This document shows, in pieces, positions 1,787-62,911 of a DNA stretch of 64,000 nucleotides. Location of the stretch: assembly GCA_035574235.1 (NCBI GenBank), contig DATLZA010000102.1, positions 27,219 through 91,218 of the forward strand, written 5' to 3'. How positions within the stretch are numbered: position 1 is the first letter of the stretch; each line of letters opens with the position of its first letter. The notes beneath the pieces are model-generated. The model did no database searches, was not told the origin of the DNA, and saw only the letters and a list, made by a program, of their open reading frames with translations. The stretch comes from Planctomycetota bacterium (GTDB taxonomy: Bacteria; Planctomycetota; MHYJ01; JACPRB01). The translations under genes and the position numbers were made by a program.

Positions 1787-3049
1787 ATGACCCCGTTCCG
1801 CGCTCCCGAGGGAACCCGCGACATCCTCCCCGACGAGGCCCGCCGCTGGCGGCGCCTCGAGGAGGCCGCGCGCGCCGCCTTCGACCGCTTCGGCTACGAG
1901 GAAGTGCGGCCTCCGGTCTTCGAGTACGCCGCGCTCTTCCAGAAGTCCAGCGGCGAAACCACCGACATCGTCGAGAAGGAGATGTTCGTCTTCGGCGACC
2001 CGGAGGATCCCGCGGGGGCGTACGCGCTGCGGCCGGAGCTCACCCCCGGCGCGGTGCGGGCCGTGCTTCAGGAGAATCTCTTCGCCCGCCGCGGACTCTG
2101 GAAGCTCTGGTACTTCGGCCCCGCCTTCCGGCGCGAGCGCCCCCAGAAAGGCCGCTACCGGCAGTTCACCCAGCTGGGCGTCGAAGTGCTCGGGACCTCC
2201 GATCCCCTGGCGGACGTGGAGACGATGATCCTTTTCGCCGAGATCCTCCGGGAGGCGGGCGTCGCCGCCTGGGAGCTGCGGATCAACTCCATCGGCTGCG
2301 CCGAGTGCCGTCCCGCGTATCGCGAGGTCCTCCGCCGGGCCATCGCCCCCGACCTTTCGCGGTACTGCGAGAATTGCCGGCGGCGCTTCGAGCGCAACGT
2401 CTTCCGGATCCTCGACTGCAAGACGCCCTCCTGCATGGAGCGGTCCTCGCGGCTGCCGGCCGCGATCGATTACACCTGCGAGCGGTGCCGCGCCCATCAG
2501 CGCGCCGTCGAGGCCGCCCTCCGCGACGCCGCGGTCCCCTTCCGCGCCGATCCGCGCATCGTTCGCGGGCTCGACTACTACACCCGGACCGTTTACGAGT
2601 TCAGCTCCTCGGCGCTCGGGGCGCAGAACGCGCTGGCCGGCGGCGGGCGCTACGACACGCTCGTGCGCGACATGGGGGGACCCGACGTGGGGGCCGTGGG
2701 GTTCGCCGCCGGCGCGGAGCGCGTGCTCCTGGCCATGGGTTCGGAGGCGGCGGCGCGGGTTCCCGACTTCTTCGGCGCGGCCGTCCAGGCGGACCAGCGG
2801 CCGGCTCTCTTCCGGCTCATGACGGAACTCCGGCGCGCGGGCTTTTCGGGCGATATGGATTACGAGGGGCGCAGCCTCAAGGCCCAGATGCGGGAGGCTC
2901 ATCGTTCCGGGGCGCGCTTCGCCCTGATTCTCGGGCCCGAGGAGGCCGCCCAGGGCCGCGTGAAGATCAAGGACATGAAGGACGGCTCGGAGCGGACCGT
3001 GGGGTTCGAAGAGGCGCGGGCCGTCCTGAAAGGAGGGAAGGGGACATGA
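1787..3049 (+). CDS. hisS: histidine--tRNA ligase
   Basis: ATG at 1787 inside the long 161..3049 frame; MTPFRAPEGTRDILPDE N-terminus, class II motifs (RPELTP, GRYRQFTQLGVE, GGGRYD), anticodon-binding C-terminus. The upstream part of the frame is antisense to the RDD gene and rejected. Confidence 0.92.
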   Translation: MTPFRAPEGTRDILPDEARRWRRLEEAARAAFDRFGYEEVRPPVFEYAALFQKSSGETTDIVEKEMFVFGDPEDPAGAYALRPELTPGAVRAVLQENLFARRGLWKLWYFGPAFRRERPQKGRYRQFTQLGVEVLGTSDPLADVETMILFAEILREAGVAAWELRINSIGCAECRPAYREVLRRAIAPDLSRYCENCRRRFERNVFRILDCKTPSCMERSSRLPAAIDYTCERCRAHQRAVEAALRDAAVPFRADPRIVRGLDYYTRTVYEFSSSALGAQNALAGGGRYDTLVRDMGGPDVGAVGFAAGAERVLLAMGSEAAARVPDFFGAAVQADQRPALFRLMTELRRAGFSGDMDYEGRSLKAQMREAHRSGARFALILGPEEAAQGRVKIKDMKDGSERTVGFEEARAVLKGGKGT

Positions 3050-3627
3050 GGAGAGCCGCATGGGCCGCCGCCCTCGCCGCCGCGGCGGGGGCGGCCGCCT
3101 GCGAGCCGTTCGATCCGGTCGAGGCGTCCCACGAGAGCGTTCGGCAGGAGGCCCTCCAGGCGTTCGACGAGTGGCGCCGCGCCGCCGCCGAAGGCCGCGC
3201 GGAGGAAACCTTCATGCGGATTTCCGACGGCCTGAAGTCCCAGTGGGTTTTCGCGCGGCTTCGGGAGGGCGACCCTCTCATTCGCGCCTGGCGCGGCGCG
3301 CTCGTCGGAGCGGCCCGCACGGATCTGGATCTCTGGTGGGAGCATTGCCGGAAGTATCCCCAGGAGCGCGTCGAGATTCTTCCGCAGACGGTGTTGCGGG
3401 AGCCTTCCCTGGCCAGGCTCTGGAAGGACTACTTCGCGCAGCAGGCCGCCGAGGTGAAGTTCCAGATGTCCCGGCTGGAGGTGGTGGACGCCTACGTCGA
3501 TCCCACGGGGGTGTCGATCCTGGTCCGCAACGCCTTCGGGCGGCAGGAAATGTACGAGCTGGTGCCCGAGGCCGGGATCTGGCGGATCAACCATCACCGG
3601 GTGGGGCCCGGCGTGACGGCGCGATAG
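3046..3627 (+). CDS. putative lipoprotein / secreted hypothetical protein
   Basis: ATG at 3046 overlaps the hisS stop (ATGA). Signal peptide MRRAAWAAALAAAAGAAAC with a Cys lipobox-like end; the rest has non-biased composition. Confidence 0.5.
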   Translation: MRRAAWAAALAAAAGAAACEPFDPVEASHESVRQEALQAFDEWRRAAAEGRAEETFMRISDGLKSQWVFARLREGDPLIRAWRGALVGAARTDLDLWWEHCRKYPQERVEILPQTVLREPSLARLWKDYFAQQAAEVKFQMSRLEVVDAYVDPTGVSILVRNAFGRQEMYELVPEAGIWRINHHRVGPGVTAR

Positions 3628-3630
3628 GTC

Positions 3631-4398
3631 CTACCGGCCGACTTCCAGGCGCTCCCCGAACCGCCGCGGGATGTGCTTGATGGCGAAAATCTTGTCCATC
3701 GTCTTGCGGTAGTCGTACTCCACGCGCCGGAATTCGACCACCTGAGTCTCGGGATCCCAGACGACGTAGCAGGCCCGCGTGTCGCGGTCCCGGGGCTGGC
3801 CCACGGAGCCGATGTTGACGTAGTAGCGGCGGTTGTCGGCGAGTTTCACCTTGTTGGCGAACGAGCGCGGCGGGTAAAACTTCATGTCCTCCGTGAAGAC
3901 GCCGGGTTCGTGGGTGTGGCCGCAGAAGCAGACATGCCGGATCATCGAGAAGATCTCTTCCATCTTCTCCCGGTCCTGCACGTCGTGCGGGCGCACGTAT
4001 TCCTTGGTGCGGTTGCGCGGCGAGGCGTGAAGGTAGGTGACCCCGTCCTCTTCCTTGATGTCGGGGAGGTCTCCCAGGTAGTTCCACATCCGGTGGTTCT
4101 CTTCCCGCGCCGCGGCGGCGTCGTTGAGCTGATTGCGCGTCCAGTCGATGGCCTGCGCGGCCTCGGGGTTGAAGTCCAGGGCCAGAAAAAGCAGCGCGTC
4201 CTCATGGTTTCCGCGCAGGGACCACGCCCAGTTGAAGGCGTGCTTGATCATCTCCCGCGGGTTCGGGCCGTAGCCGATGAGGTCCCCGAGGCAGTAGATC
4301 GTCTCGATCTTCTGGGCGTTGATGTCCTTGAGGACGGCTTCGAGCGCCTCGATGTTGGAATGCAGATCAGAGATCAGCGCGACCTTGTTTTTGCTCAT
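3631..4398 (-). CDS. metallophosphoesterase (calcineurin-like phosphoesterase)
   Basis: 255 aa; motifs ISDLHSN, CLGDLIGYGPNP, GNHE and GHTHEPGVF are typical of the MPP superfamily. Confidence 0.8.
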   Translation of the reverse strand: MSKNKVALISDLHSNIEALEAVLKDINAQKIETIYCLGDLIGYGPNPREMIKHAFNWAWSLRGNHEDALLFLALDFNPEAAQAIDWTRNQLNDAAAAREENHRMWNYLGDLPDIKEEDGVTYLHASPRNRTKEYVRPHDVQDREKMEEIFSMIRHVCFCGHTHEPGVFTEDMKFYPPRSFANKVKLADNRRYYVNIGSVGQPRDRDTRACYVVWDPETQVVEFRRVEYDYRKTMDKIFAIKHIPRRFGERLEVGR

Positions 4399-6977: not shown

Positions 6978-7697
6978 ATGATCGCCCGCCGCTCCCGACG
7001 TCGCGACGGCCTGACGCTCATCGAGATCCTGCTGGCCCTCATCGTGATGGTGCTCGGCTTCTGCGGGATCCTGGCGCTTTTCCCTCCGGCGCTCCAATCC
7101 TCGCGCGAATCGATGGAGGCCACCAACGCGGCCATCCTCGGGGAATCGATCGCGCACGCCCTGACGACGTCCCTGCAATTCGCGACATTCAACGCGTCCA
7201 GCCAGCAGTACGAGGCGATCCTGACGCACGACCTCAAGTCCGGCGCCGTCAGCAACCGGTACCGGTTCGCCCTTCCCAAACTGGCGCCCCCCGGCGACCC
7301 CATGGGGGGGTGGCGACACTACCCGAGCAAGGTGAACCCCCCGTCCCCCGACCTCGGCGCGCCGATGACGGCAAGCTGGGCCCCCGAGGAGGACGACCGC
7401 CTCTTCACCCTCGACGGCGACCCGTGGCTCAAGGAAACCGTCCGCCGCGTGCACGAGATCAACGACGCGACCGATCCCTACAGCCAGTTCGCCTTTTCGT
7501 TCCAGGCGCGCAAGTCGGACCATCTGGCCTATCTGCGCGTCCGCGTCAATCCGGACACGGGCCGCCCGTACACCAACGAGGAAATCGACAAGCAGAGCAT
7601 GCTGTACGAGTTCCGCATCCACATCTTCCGCGTGACGCCCGCGGGGGACGCCCGCAAGCTGATCGCCACGATCGCCCATAAGATCGCCCTCAAATAG
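6978..7697 (+). CDS. prepilin-type pseudopilin (minor pilin, GspI-like)
   Basis: MIARRSRRRDG|LTLIEILLALIVMVLG. Confidence 0.7.
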   Translation: MIARRSRRRDGLTLIEILLALIVMVLGFCGILALFPPALQSSRESMEATNAAILGESIAHALTTSLQFATFNASSQQYEAILTHDLKSGAVSNRYRFALPKLAPPGDPMGGWRHYPSKVNPPSPDLGAPMTASWAPEEDDRLFTLDGDPWLKETVRRVHEINDATDPYSQFAFSFQARKSDHLAYLRVRVNPDTGRPYTNEEIDKQSMLYEFRIHIFRVTPAGDARKLIATIAHKIALK

Positions 7698-46748: not shown

Positions 46749-46844
46749 GGGCGCGGCGCCCGCGAGCCAGGGGATTTTTTTCGCTTTACCCGGCGGCGGG
46801 GGAGGCGTAGACTTTCGGGAAATCGCCGCTTCCCGGAGGTCGGC

Positions 46845-59099: not shown

Positions 59100-61271
59100 T
59101 CATTTCAAAAGTTTCTCCACGCAGCCTTCCCGGCCGGTGATGAGGGCCGGCACGGGAAGAGCCTCCACCACGCGGGGCGAATAGTATCCCTCGGGGGCGC
59201 TGACGACGACCGTTTCGGCCCCGACGCGCCGCACGAATTCCTCATGCCGCTCGAAGTACTTCCCGTGGTGGGGCAGGACGAGCAGCCGCGCGCGAAGGTC
59301 GGGGAGCGTGAGAAGTTCCTCGACGCCGCGGTCCTGGATGTCGCCCGGGAAGAGGACGCCTCCCGCGCGAAGGACGATGGAGCTTTCGTTCGGGGGGACC
59401 GGGCGGCCGAACTTTTCCCACGCGGGCGGGCCCAGGATTTCCATCCGGTCGAGCCGCACCGGTTCGTGAAGGCGCTCGACGACGACGACCTCGACCCCCG
59501 CGGGCCACGTGAACCCCTCGAAGGCGCGGGTGACGATCAGACGGCGGACCCGCACAAGCTCCAGGAGCGAGCGCGCGCCGTTGACGTGGTCGGCGTCGGG
59601 GTGGGTCAGGACGAGGGTGTCGAGGCGCCGGACCCCGCGCTCCCAGAGGTAGGGAGCGGCGATGGAGGCGCCGGGATCCCGGACGTCGAGGCTGCCGCAG
59701 TCCACCATGAGGTTTCGTCCGTCGGGCCATTCGAGGTAAGCGCAGCTTCCGCGGCCCACGTCGAGCGCCGCGAAGAAGACGCCGTCGGGGGCGCGGTAGC
59801 GCAGCGGGCCCGCCAGTCCCAGGGGCAAAACGAGCGCCACGGCCCCGAGCGCCTTCCAGGGGCGGGGAGCGGCGCGGCACCAGAGCGTCCAGGCGCCGAG
59901 CGCGGCGTAGTAGGCCGCCAGAAGCGCCGGGCCGGGCGAAGGGCCGTAGGCGTGGGAGAAAGGGAGGGACCCCAGGAATCCGGAAGCGGCGCTCAGGAGG
60001 TCGAACGCCGCGCCGGCCGCCGCGCCCGTGAGGCTTCCAAGGCCGATCGGCGCGAGGAGCAGGTGGGCCAGGCCCAGGCCGAATTCGAGCGTCATGAGGG
60101 GGACGATGAGGAGGTTCGCCGCGACGATCACGGGCGTCAGAAGGTTGAAGGCTTCGAGGATGATCGGAGCGGTGGCGAGCCACGCCGCCAGGGAGGCGGC
60201 CAGGGCATGCCGCAGGCGCTCCCAGGCCCAGCCGCCGGGGGCCGGGAGGGCGTGGAAGATCGGGGCCACGAGGGAAAGTCCCAGGACGGCCGCGAAGGAG
60301 AGCTGAAATCCCAGGTCCGCCACCTGGGCGGGATCGACGGCCGAAAGAAGGAGCGCCGCGGCCGCCAGCGCCGAGATCGCGTCGCGCCGCCGCCAGGCCA
60401 GGTCGGCCCCGAAGAAGGCGGCGATCATGAGGAAGGAGCGCACGACGGAGATTTCCAGTCCGGTCAGAAGGACGTACGTGCCCAGGATTCCGAGAAGGGC
60501 GAGCGCCTGGGGCCGTCCCGTGACGCCCAGGAGGGTCAGGAGCGTCCAGAACGCCCCCAGGACGATGACGAGGTTCTGGCCGGACAGGGCCAGGACGTGC
60601 GCGGTGCCGGTGCGCTGGAAGTTCCGCACGAGGTCGTCCGGAAGCGGTTCGCGGCGGCCCAGGACGATGGCGGCGCAGAAGGAGCCGACTTCCGGGCGCA
60701 TACCGCGGTCGAAAAGGGAGCGGACCCACGCGCGGGCGCGGCTCCAGGCCGGCGGTCCTTCCAGGATCTCGAGCGTTTCGAGGGTCATCACGGCGTCGAT
60801 GCCCTGGCGCTGGAGCCAGGCGCCGTAATCGAACTGGCCGGGGTTCGTGGCGCGTCTGGGGCGCTTCATGGGGCCGCGGACGCGGACGCGCTCGCCGCCG
60901 ATGAGCGGCACCTCGCGGCCGAAGGCGCGGACCTGAACGCGGTCCACGACGAAGGAGGCTCGGGCCGGGGGTGCGCCTTCGGGTTCGTCCAGGGAGCGGT
61001 AGAAGCGGGGAGGGCCGGCCACGGTGCCCTCGACCTGATCCGTCAGGGGGATCGGGTCGCGAAGCTCGGCGGCTTCCTGCCGGATCGCGCCGAGGGCGGT
61101 TCCCCAAAGCGCCAGAAGGAAGGGCGCGCGGCGGCGGCACAGGGCGAGCACGGCGCCGAGCGCCAAGGCCGCGGCGACGGGAAGGAGCCACGGCGGATCC
61201 GCTTCGCGCGCGCCGGCGATGCCGGCCAGGAATCCCGCCGCCAGCGGGACCAGGGGGCGCGCCCGGAGCAT
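59100..61271 (-). CDS. comEC: DNA internalisation-related competence protein ComEC/Rec2
   Basis: Start MLRARPLVPL; competence domain (AHVLALSGQNL, GLSFAAV); C-terminal metallo-beta-lactamase (HPDADHVNG, VLPHHG). Confidence 0.8.
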   Translation of the reverse strand: MLRARPLVPLAAGFLAGIAGAREADPPWLLPVAAALALGAVLALCRRRAPFLLALWGTALGAIRQEAAELRDPIPLTDQVEGTVAGPPRFYRSLDEPEGAPPARASFVVDRVQVRAFGREVPLIGGERVRVRGPMKRPRRATNPGQFDYGAWLQRQGIDAVMTLETLEILEGPPAWSRARAWVRSLFDRGMRPEVGSFCAAIVLGRREPLPDDLVRNFQRTGTAHVLALSGQNLVIVLGAFWTLLTLLGVTGRPQALALLGILGTYVLLTGLEISVVRSFLMIAAFFGADLAWRRRDAISALAAAALLLSAVDPAQVADLGFQLSFAAVLGLSLVAPIFHALPAPGGWAWERLRHALAASLAAWLATAPIILEAFNLLTPVIVAANLLIVPLMTLEFGLGLAHLLLAPIGLGSLTGAAAGAAFDLLSAASGFLGSLPFSHAYGPSPGPALLAAYYAALGAWTLWCRAAPRPWKALGAVALVLPLGLAGPLRYRAPDGVFFAALDVGRGSCAYLEWPDGRNLMVDCGSLDVRDPGASIAAPYLWERGVRRLDTLVLTHPDADHVNGARSLLELVRVRRLIVTRAFEGFTWPAGVEVVVVERLHEPVRLDRMEILGPPAWEKFGRPVPPNESSIVLRAGGVLFPGDIQDRGVEELLTLPDLRARLLVLPHHGKYFERHEEFVRRVGAETVVVSAPEGYYSPRVVEALPVPALITGREGCVEKLLK

Positions 61272-61400
61272 CGCGGGATTATATCGGCGCGTGGAACCTC
61301 TGCGAAGGAAGCGCGAGAACCTGCGGATAAAGGTTATACTCGTGTCTGGAAGCTTCACCCACGTCCAGGCGCTCAACTTTTTACATAGGAGGGATGTCCC

Positions 61401-61686
61401 ATGAAACGCCTCTTGATGGCTTCGGGATCGGGGGGGATCGCGGCCCTTTTTTTTTCTGCTCGGATTCGTTGCGGCCGACTGGACTCCGTCGGCTCAGGCG
61501 TCTCCGGCCATGACCTTTTCGGAAAGCTCGGAGGGCGCCTTCAGCGGTCAGGACGGCGTTCTGGTCGTTCGTGTCGGTCAGGGCGGAAATCCCATGATCT
61601 TCGTCTTTCGGGGGAACCGGATCTGGAAACTGGATCCTTCGCAAACGCAATCGCTGAACACGAAACCTTGGGGCGTTCTCGAATAG
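61401..61686 (+). CDS. small secreted protein gene interrupted by a frameshift at a T9 homopolymer (61447-61455)
   Basis: With 8 T the ATG at 61401 reads MKRLLMASGSGGIAALFFLLGFVAADWTPSAQA|SPAMTFSESSEG...KPWGVLE* (95 aa, signal peptide, TAG at 61684). As sequenced, frame 1 runs into Arg-rich nonsense to 61748. Confidence 0.4.
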
Positions 61687-61744
61687 GTTCGGTCGCGCCG
61701 ATCGTGGACCGCGCCGGCGGGGTCTGTTACAATAGCCGTTCGTC

Positions 61745-62431
61745 ATGAGCCTTCCGTGGAAGGTCGGGGACAAGCTTCCGGACGCGCGGCTGGGGACGAT
61801 GGGGGGGACGTCCTGCGCGCTGCGCGATTTCCGGGGCCGGAAGGCGCTCGTCTACGTGTGGGCCTCCTGGTCCGACAGCCGGGAGGCGCTTCCGCTCCTC
61901 GAGGAATTCCACGGCAAGCACCCGGAAACGGCCGCGATTTCCATCGCCTGCGACGTGACCGGACCGGAGTATCCGATGCGGTACCTGCGCCGGGCACGCG
62001 CGACCTTCGAAATGTGGATCGACGCCACGTGCACGATCTCGCGGCGCTGGGGCGTCAAGGAGGTTCCGGTAACGGTCCTCCTCGACGAGGAAGGCTGCAT
62101 TCTGCTCCTGGGGACCGCGCTGGACCGGCCGCTTCTGGCCCGCGTGGAGGAGCTTCTGGCCCGACCCGCGGCGCGGCGCGGAGTTCCCGAGCCCAGGGTG
62201 GATACGAAGAACACCCGCATCGAAATCCTCATGCAGTCCTGCACGAACTTTCTGAGCCGGAAGCGGACGGCGGATGCGGCCGCTTCGCTTCGGAAAGCGC
62301 TCGCGGTCGATCCCGAGAACAAACTCATCGCCCCGCAGGTGTTGGTGCTCACGAACCCCGAGAAGTTCTACGAGGGGGCGATCGATCATGCCTGGCTGGC
62401 CGCTCAGCCGCCGGTGACGCCGCTCGCGTAG
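61745..62431 (+). CDS. thioredoxin-fold (TlpA/redoxin-like) protein lacking the CxxC motif
   Basis: ALVYVWASWSDSREALP aligns with redoxin WA(S/T)WCxPC, but the Cys are replaced; helical C-terminal region. Confidence 0.5.
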   Translation: MSLPWKVGDKLPDARLGTMGGTSCALRDFRGRKALVYVWASWSDSREALPLLEEFHGKHPETAAISIACDVTGPEYPMRYLRRARATFEMWIDATCTISRRWGVKEVPVTVLLDEEGCILLLGTALDRPLLARVEELLARPAARRGVPEPRVDTKNTRIEILMQSCTNFLSRKRTADAAASLRKALAVDPENKLIAPQVLVLTNPEKFYEGAIDHAWLAAQPPVTPLA

Positions 62432-62451
62432 GGCCCGGGCCGGCGGGGAGG

Positions 62452-62748
62452 CTATCGGGCGGGTTCCGGAGGGCGCCGGCGGGATCGCGCGAAGAATCCC
62501 AGCACCGCCACAAAAAGGGCCGCCCCGAGGATCGACCACAGGATGGGGAACGGCTCGTTTCCGATGCGCACGACGAGAACGGCCGGAAGTCCCAGAAGCC
62601 CCGCCATCCACGACCCCAGGAGCGCCCCGATGAAGCCCAGGGCGATCGAGACCAGGCAGCCTCCTCGCGAGTATCCGGCCAGCACCTGACCGAGAGCGCC
62701 GGCCACGCCGGCCACCAGCAGCAGAAGCAGAAATTCCAGAAGGTTCAT
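62452..62748 (-). CDS. GlsB/YeaQ/YmgE-family stress-response membrane protein
   Basis: 98 aa; Gly-rich TM helices VAGVAGALGQVL, IGALLGSWMAGLLG. Confidence 0.7.
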   Translation of the reverse strand: MNLLEFLLLLLVAGVAGALGQVLAGYSRGGCLVSIALGFIGALLGSWMAGLLGLPAVLVVRIGNEPFPILWSILGAALFVAVLGFFARSRRRPPEPAR

Positions 62749-62911
62749 TCCGAGTCTCCCTGCAAAAGGGTCACGGGTACCTACACATACGATGCTTCGG
62801 CGCGCGGGTTACTACGCGGGTAACGGCTCAGGACCTCGAAGAGCGGATCACGAAGGACGCGGCGCGTCCCGCGATTCCGCGATCGGATCCTTCATGACGG
62901 CGGCCCAAAGG

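Follow-up and report, generated by a model that had tools for sequence, protein, structure and literature searches.

One extra T splits a recently inserted gene for a small predicted exported protein in an environmental Planctomycetota strain

A small gene for a predicted exported protein is split by one extra T in the window, the whole stretch of Planctomycetota DNA analysed here (64,000 nt). Comparison with other assemblies showed that the gene is genuine, that a run of eight T (T8) is its intact state and that a T8/T9 allele difference exists. We favour, with a probability of about 0.55, the reading that a slippage mutation knocked out a recently acquired, dispensable gene, perhaps leaving an allele that is leaky at the transcript level. 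Homopolymer frameshift alleles are of a well-known kind, and the present case is a new instance; the data at hand favour an ordinary hot-spot frameshift.

The gene starts at ATG 61401 on the plus strand, as read from the sequence, with a Shine-Dalgarno-like AGGAGGG (61389–61395, plus strand) 5–6 nt ahead of it that is the same in the T8 strains. Codons 1–15 (MKRLLMASGSGGIAA) are followed by CTT TTT TTT T, the T9 run (61447–61455, plus strand) encoding Leu16 (CTT), Phe17 and Phe18. The 5′ coding part in frame 0 (61401–61455, plus strand) comprises codons 1–18 (MKRLLMASGSGGIAALFF) and one extra T, while the 3′ part (61456–61686, plus strand) lies in the +1 frame and holds codons 19–94 and the stop TAG at 61684–61686. 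With one T removed, the two parts give a 94-aa protein, MKRLLMASGSGGIAALFFLLGFVAADWTPSAQA followed by SPAMTF...WGVLE, in which the signal peptide ends at A31-Q-A33 (61492–61500, plus strand); W27, a derived residue, and M37 are encoded at 61480–61482 and 61510–61512, both on the plus strand. Read with nine T, the frame from 61401 instead gives a 115-aa Arg-rich product that enters the next gene and ends at 61748. GC content at codon positions 1, 2 and 3 is coding-like in the repaired frame (0.59, 0.50 and 0.68) and not coding-like in the T9 frame (0.63, 0.60 and 0.56). The start, the tract and the T8 frame to TAG 61684, all put forward in an earlier note on this DNA, were thus confirmed in the sequence, as was its description of the T9 frame as Arg-rich nonsense.

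No in-frame start that would serve the T9 allele was found upstream of the tract. A TGA precedes the opening of the +1 frame at 61417, and none of ATG, GTG and TTG occurs in it before 61510, so the T9 allele lacks a signal-peptide-bearing product unless it is recoded. Accordingly, all that is callable in the window and in L001, a Logan contig carrying the same sequence, is a 58-aa tail (P0001). The tract itself is unusual in its surroundings: the window has a GC content of 68.7%, and T9 is the sole A/T run longer than 7 in its 64 kb, the next longest being two T7 runs (35868 and 46775). Under independent, identically distributed bases at 15.5% T, 0.003 runs of at least nine T would be expected in 64 kb. 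A G7 run lies within the same gene 10 nt 5′ of the tract (61430–61436, codons Gly11–Gly12). It and the G7 run at 61801–61807, in the downstream tlpA-like gene, have equal length in the T8 strain, revealing no variation in the available data.

Related loci were retrieved by exact protein matches, either to the small protein or to versions of its tlpA-like neighbour. When the repaired protein was used in a word-indexed search, the 58-aa tail was the only match; its 90% cluster contains just two sequences, P0001 and P0002. The latter is 94 aa long and, W27R and M37V aside, matches the T8 reconstruction. Gene calls for it exist on 5 contigs from 4 other metagenome assemblies (ENA ERZ23499828, ERZ23499679 and ERZ27277014; JGI 3300039489), with DNA that is ~99% identical to the window. 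The tract is T8 at all four of the P0002 places shown (contigs L002–L005). These findings establish that the reconstruction in the earlier note was right and that a real gene has been split by one extra T, as both the unbroken T8 orthologues and the more distant members of its family bear out. They also answer the objection, raised in the same note, that orthologues might lack the downstream frame: it is present in them. Compared with these orthologues, which are intact and as long as the repaired gene (P0002, 94 aa, L002–L005), the window thus has a broken reading frame.

Aligned with L002 and L003, the window shows 79 mismatches and one gap in 7,600 bases, and the gap is the tract. All T9 sequence carried W27/M37 and all T8 sequence R27/V37 (one T9 contig versus five T8 contigs); these haplotype SNPs, 61480 T/C and 61510 A/G, lie 25 and 55 nt downstream of the tract. 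P0001 is recorded from one contig only, and no T8 form of the window haplotype (W27/M37) occurs in the 90% cluster; a T9 version of the R27/V37 haplotype would most likely be called as a P0001-like 58-aa protein from a GTG start. A P0002-based search of metagenome contigs and genome contigs gave 600 pattern matches in each and none that was confirmed, and a degenerate DNA pattern for GGNPMIFVFRGN had no matches in either set. Within the small gene, the two haplotypes differ by 0 synonymous and 2 non-synonymous changes, compared with 44:25 in neighbouring genes, a difference that is not significant. Past the end of the window, a neutral-ceramidase-like gene is called as 379 aa in the JGI contig (L003 8119–9258) and 410 aa in the ENA contig (L002 8119–9351), and as 385 aa in L019 and 409 aa in L020; start-site or frameshift variation may occur there too.

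When 1.84 billion representative sequences were scanned exhaustively with HMMER, the protein fell into a small family of 85–93 aa with no annotation, whose members include P0009 (51% identity, E = 1e-15), P0010–P0013 and P0015–P0017. Their alignment has a basic N-terminus, a conserved hydrophobic segment (AFFxLGFxxADR), an A-x-A site with an invariant Ala at −3, a variable linker and a conserved C-terminal domain (FSG..G..V......RG.KIW.LDP....PWG.L.). In the repaired protein, the signal peptide is laid out as an MKR n-region, then IAALFFLLGFVAA, then A31-Q-A33, with S next after the cleavage point. A31 is invariant and small residues are conserved at −1 in 9 of 9 family members. The invariant −3 Ala supports cleavage between AQA and SP, and the signal peptide and mature domain of ~60 aa claimed in the earlier note agree with the family alignment. 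The T8 form encodes, on this sequence evidence, a predicted Sec-exported protein with ~61 mature residues. The AlphaFold2 model, built on this alignment, has a helix at residues 6–26, then a disordered linker, and lastly a sheet of four strands with pLDDT values of 84–87. The homologues P0009 and P0010 carry GGAGG/GAGGA at the same spacing before their starts and encode the conserved Phe-Phe as TTC TTC, with no T tract.

Searches for a known domain or fold were negative. Pfam and NCBIfam gave nothing over threshold for the repaired protein or its homologues, a sequence profile search of the PDB had a best E of 0.09 and a Foldseek search of the AlphaFold2 model against the PDB a best E of 0.97. 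The closest likeness is to Hemopexin blade repeats (PF00045): the motif VfRGnKiWklDP of the small protein gives sub-threshold matches (E = 0.02–0.07), with the repaired protein at 13.6 bits and P0009 at 15.2 bits against a gathering threshold of 21.3 bits. However, the small protein is a single unit and would form no propeller without oligomerization. An 800-aa protein, P0014, scores 24.4 bits against Hemopexin (cut-off 21.3), although no single stretch passes. It has a large N-terminal domain followed by more than 10 tandem repeats of ~47 aa (residues ~270–800), and the repeat, …AAMT.L.G.LY.VQN.KLWE.DPSTG.YKQLG.G.AW…, resembles the RGnKiWklDP hairpin of the small family. P0014 may, judging from these sequence features, be a multi-blade relative of the single-unit family.

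The small gene and its upstream region make up a lineage-specific insertion of 369 bp (61318–61686, plus strand), with edges ambiguous by 2 nt owing to an AG microhomology and with the stop codon of the gene as its right edge. On its left, it adjoins the divergent comEC (59100–61271, minus strand; 723 aa; Pfam Competence, DUF4131 and Lactamase_B), as the earlier note had stated. On its right, 58 bp downstream of the small gene, lies a gene for a TlpA/AhpC-TSA-family thiol-disulfide oxidoreductase (61745–62431, plus strand; 228 aa; HXG61522.1), preceded by an extended −10 promoter-like site (61705–61733). The gene is absent from four samples of a sister lineage (L006, L007, L009 and L010; ~92–94% nucleotide identity), in which 61317 is joined to 61687. 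In an outgroup represented by a 921-kb contig (L019) and L020, with 87% TlpA identity, just 101 bp separate the comEC and tlpA starts. A more distant outgroup (L021–L023, 63% TlpA identity) has an ECF-sigma cassette at the position of the small gene. Its absence from the sister lineage and from both outgroups examined shows that the segment is a derived insertion and the gene accessory.

The insert has a GC content of 57%, compared with ~70% in its flanks, and holds the ribosome-binding site and 83 bp of upstream sequence at 51% GC. Four of its 7 Phe codons are TTT, versus 2 of 34 in comEC and tlpA. This low GC content and TTT-rich Phe usage point to a putative foreign origin; the nearest homologue sits on a 60%-GC contig. 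A blastn search of the insert against phage genomes gave no match. We rejected a MITE or IS origin, as neither terminal inverted repeats nor a target-site duplication was found at the insert ends, which showed only imperfect matches of 7–12 nt at chance level. Also rejected was a 94-aa ORF between comEC and the ECF sigma gene of L022 as a homologue, its translation being unrelated and off-frame in appearance; a tblastn search of the family against all loci had no match there.

Several features of the region were recorded alongside. In L021–L023, the equivalent of window 61272–61744 (L021 ~2136–3875) is a three-gene cassette of an ECF sigma factor and two unknown genes, and small insertions seem to have landed repeatedly in the intergenic space of comEC and tlpA. 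A second lineage-specific indel, of 479 bp, lies downstream of the tlpA-like gene (62432–62910) and contains a gene on the minus strand (62452–62748) for a 98-aa membrane protein matching Pfam Transgly_assoc below the cut-off (E = 7e-5). The 479-bp segment is found in the window and the T8 strain, is replaced by ~80 bp in L006, L007 and L010, and is absent from L019 and L020. L005, a short contig, begins at window 61320, 2 bp past the left edge of the 369-bp insertion; L004 and L005 end near 61957 where L011 starts at 61960, a break seen in two samples. Such contig breaks may be assembly-graph branch points, in which case those samples may contain a mixture of strains that differ in having the insert or in their tlpA allele. 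Upstream of the small gene, no sigma-70-type promoter passed our scan. The only −10-like hexamer in that part of the insert (61334–61339) reads TATACT with T9 and TACACT with T8 (L002 4934–4939), and this element accounts for 2 of the 5 substitutions found in the 369-bp insert.

We considered whether the extra T could be an error, the organism being truly T8 and a miscall having been carried into both assemblies of one run. Homopolymers are the most error-prone context, and T9 is known from one sample only. Over 10.7 kb that take in the T9 tract, the window and the Logan contig (L001, SRR7882662) show 100% identity, but L001 and the window's metagenome-assembled genome were probably built from the same sample and reads, so their agreement excludes an assembler quirk and not a read-level artefact. 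Nevertheless, two different assemblers give T9, and the other runs of at least 7 inside genes of the window stay in frame (C8 at 56622, G7 at 7304, 22317 and 61801, and T7 at 46775). The 7.6-kb comparison with the T8 strain includes the C8 and two G7 runs, none of which is gapped, leaving the tract as the sole indel. The same allele also carries R27W, as expected of a gene truly freed from selection. We therefore regard the assembly error allowed for in the earlier note as unlikely, rate a sequencing or consensus miscall as rather improbable, and infer that T9 is a biological mutation.

Taking the mutation as real, the favoured course of events would run as follows. A low-GC insertion of 369 bp would recently have brought the gene to its place between two divergent promoters, those of comEC and the tlpA-like gene; with it would have come a T8 run, formed by the codons for Leu-Phe-Phe (CTT TTT TTT). 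A single replication-slippage event would later have added a T in the sequenced strain. Translation from ATG 61401 would then leave the frame after Phe18 and yield 115 aa with neither signal peptide nor mature domain. A minority of transcripts may regain the frame, given that bacterial RNA polymerases slip on 9 T/A. Because Phe-Phe is written TTC TTC in the homologues, the tract is no conserved device but a chance product of the codon usage of this copy, and we infer a one-off inactivation at a mutational hot spot, not an evolved switch. R27 is invariant across the family, and its replacement by Trp hints that the T9 copy is drifting; the 0:2 count points the same way, but not significantly.

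The main competitor is a phase-variable contingency gene, in which the tract would switch reversibly and often by replication slippage and turn export on or off within populations. The layout is the classic one, a tract at codons 16–18 of an exported-protein gene whose length sets the reading frame (T8 intact, T9 frameshifted), and it is a one-unit length difference that forms the sole indel between 99%-identical strains. TTT, moreover, is very rare in the host genes yet forms the tract. Against this, TTT richness is general to the low-GC insert and not specific to the tract, tract length has changed in only one inferable event and is fully tied to haplotype, and decay of the T9 allele is suggested by its R27W change at an invariant position. 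We also found no sign that the tract is kept by selection: homologues have TTC TTC, and the lack of any other A/T run longer than 7 means that there is no tract family in the window, although 64 kb is a small genome sample. Tracts of eight or nine T are at the short end for efficient phase switching. With two haplotypes, however, a single mutation and a slow contingency tract look alike. The phase-variable frameshift suggested in the earlier note is thus compatible with the T8/T9 difference between strains, while the single haplotype-linked event, the unconserved tract and R27W speak against it; we consider reversible switching unlikely. A more elaborate version, in which T8/T9 is a working switch toggling export of a predicted ~60-aa single-blade-like beta-protein, with a T9 ‘off’ state made leaky and graded by hairpin-assisted slippage, appears quite improbable.

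Two further explanations hinge on an imperfect RNA hairpin of −12.2 kcal/mol (61418–61445, plus strand) that ends one base before the U run, a geometry that resembles a terminator or a slippage stimulator. Runs of nine A or T are highly efficient slippage sites in vivo, and slippage can be stimulated by a stem-loop immediately 5′ of them (PMC5009743). Known cases on A9/T9 include Thermus thermophilus dnaX and Shigella mxiE, alongside poly(A) frameshift rescue in Buchnera and Blochmannia and hairpin-stimulated slippage in a Roseiflexus IS630 element (PMC5009743). Leaky rescue of T9 by RNA-polymerase slippage is plausible by analogy, and any such rescue, through the loss of one U or the gain of two, would be incidental leakiness rather than a programmed event. 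Programmed recoding would go further, T9 being functional through obligatory transcriptional slippage (−1/+2 nt) or +1 ribosomal frameshifting on UUU-U. The efficient slippage site and the hairpin directly 5′ of it, as in the Roseiflexus element, fit this idea, but a programmed site should be conserved. Here, the slippery out-of-frame site is not conserved across orthologues, the closest relatives being T8 and in frame and the distant homologues having no tract. The hairpin is, moreover, no more stable than shuffled sequence (z = 0.47), and the 0-frame product is Arg-rich nonsense without conservation. We hold programmed recoding to be very unlikely.

The other explanation is non-coding: a short leader peptide would be followed by an intrinsic terminator or attenuator made of the hairpin and U9, and the ORF beyond it would be incidental. 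A consensus scan does call a terminator-like site at 61430–61450, followed by the T run, and folding gives the hairpin described above. However, the scan found 2 sites where shuffled sequences predict 1.0 ± 1.1, the z score of the hairpin tells against it here too, and Rfam at a permissive threshold returned only a chance-level viral pseudoknot match (E = 0.067) for 61100–61900. Above all, the downstream frame is conserved as protein across the family down to ~30% identity, which largely refutes the terminator reading; we give it hardly any credence.

The hot-spot knock-out, if correct, offers a small, clean case, in environmental Planctomycetota, of a gene gained and then lost: an accessory gene of very recent arrival, brought in as a 369-bp single-gene insertion between divergent promoters, would already have been lost by homopolymer slippage in one strain. 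The by-eye frameshift repair in the earlier note recovered a real gene, from an unannotated family of tiny predicted exported proteins, where automatic gene callers leave a meaningless 58-aa fragment. We know of no description of phase variation in Planctomycetota, and if reads showed mixed tract lengths, the gene would become a candidate phase-variable locus in this phylum.

Homopolymer contingency loci rely on poly-G/C tracts in Campylobacter, Neisseria and Haemophilus and on poly-A/T tracts in Helicobacter and Mycoplasma. The present gene shares with them a coding homopolymer near the 5′ end of an exported-protein gene, where a change of ±1 toggles between an intact ORF and truncated nonsense, and both lengths are seen in nature. 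It differs in that a single, haplotype-linked toggle is known from consensus contigs only, in a tract that is short (8/9), unconserved and the lone A/T run of at least 8 in 64 kb, and in that the host is an environmental member of the Planctomycetota. With the A9/T9 slippage systems it has in common a sense-strand T9 with a nascent-RNA hairpin directly before it and a frame that is restored by −1 U or +2; in contrast to them, its out-of-frame state is unconserved (the relatives are in frame), its hairpin is weak and it is known from DNA alone. As in the endosymbiont poly(A) cases, rescue here would be incidental, not programmed. Recent frameshift pseudogenes are alike in having an ORF broken relative to intact orthologues, an extra substitution at an invariant residue and a gene that is dispensable, being absent here from the sister lineage and the two outgroups examined. 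Unlike them, the T9 allele has its lesion at an easily reverting site with the remainder intact, and could be recovered.
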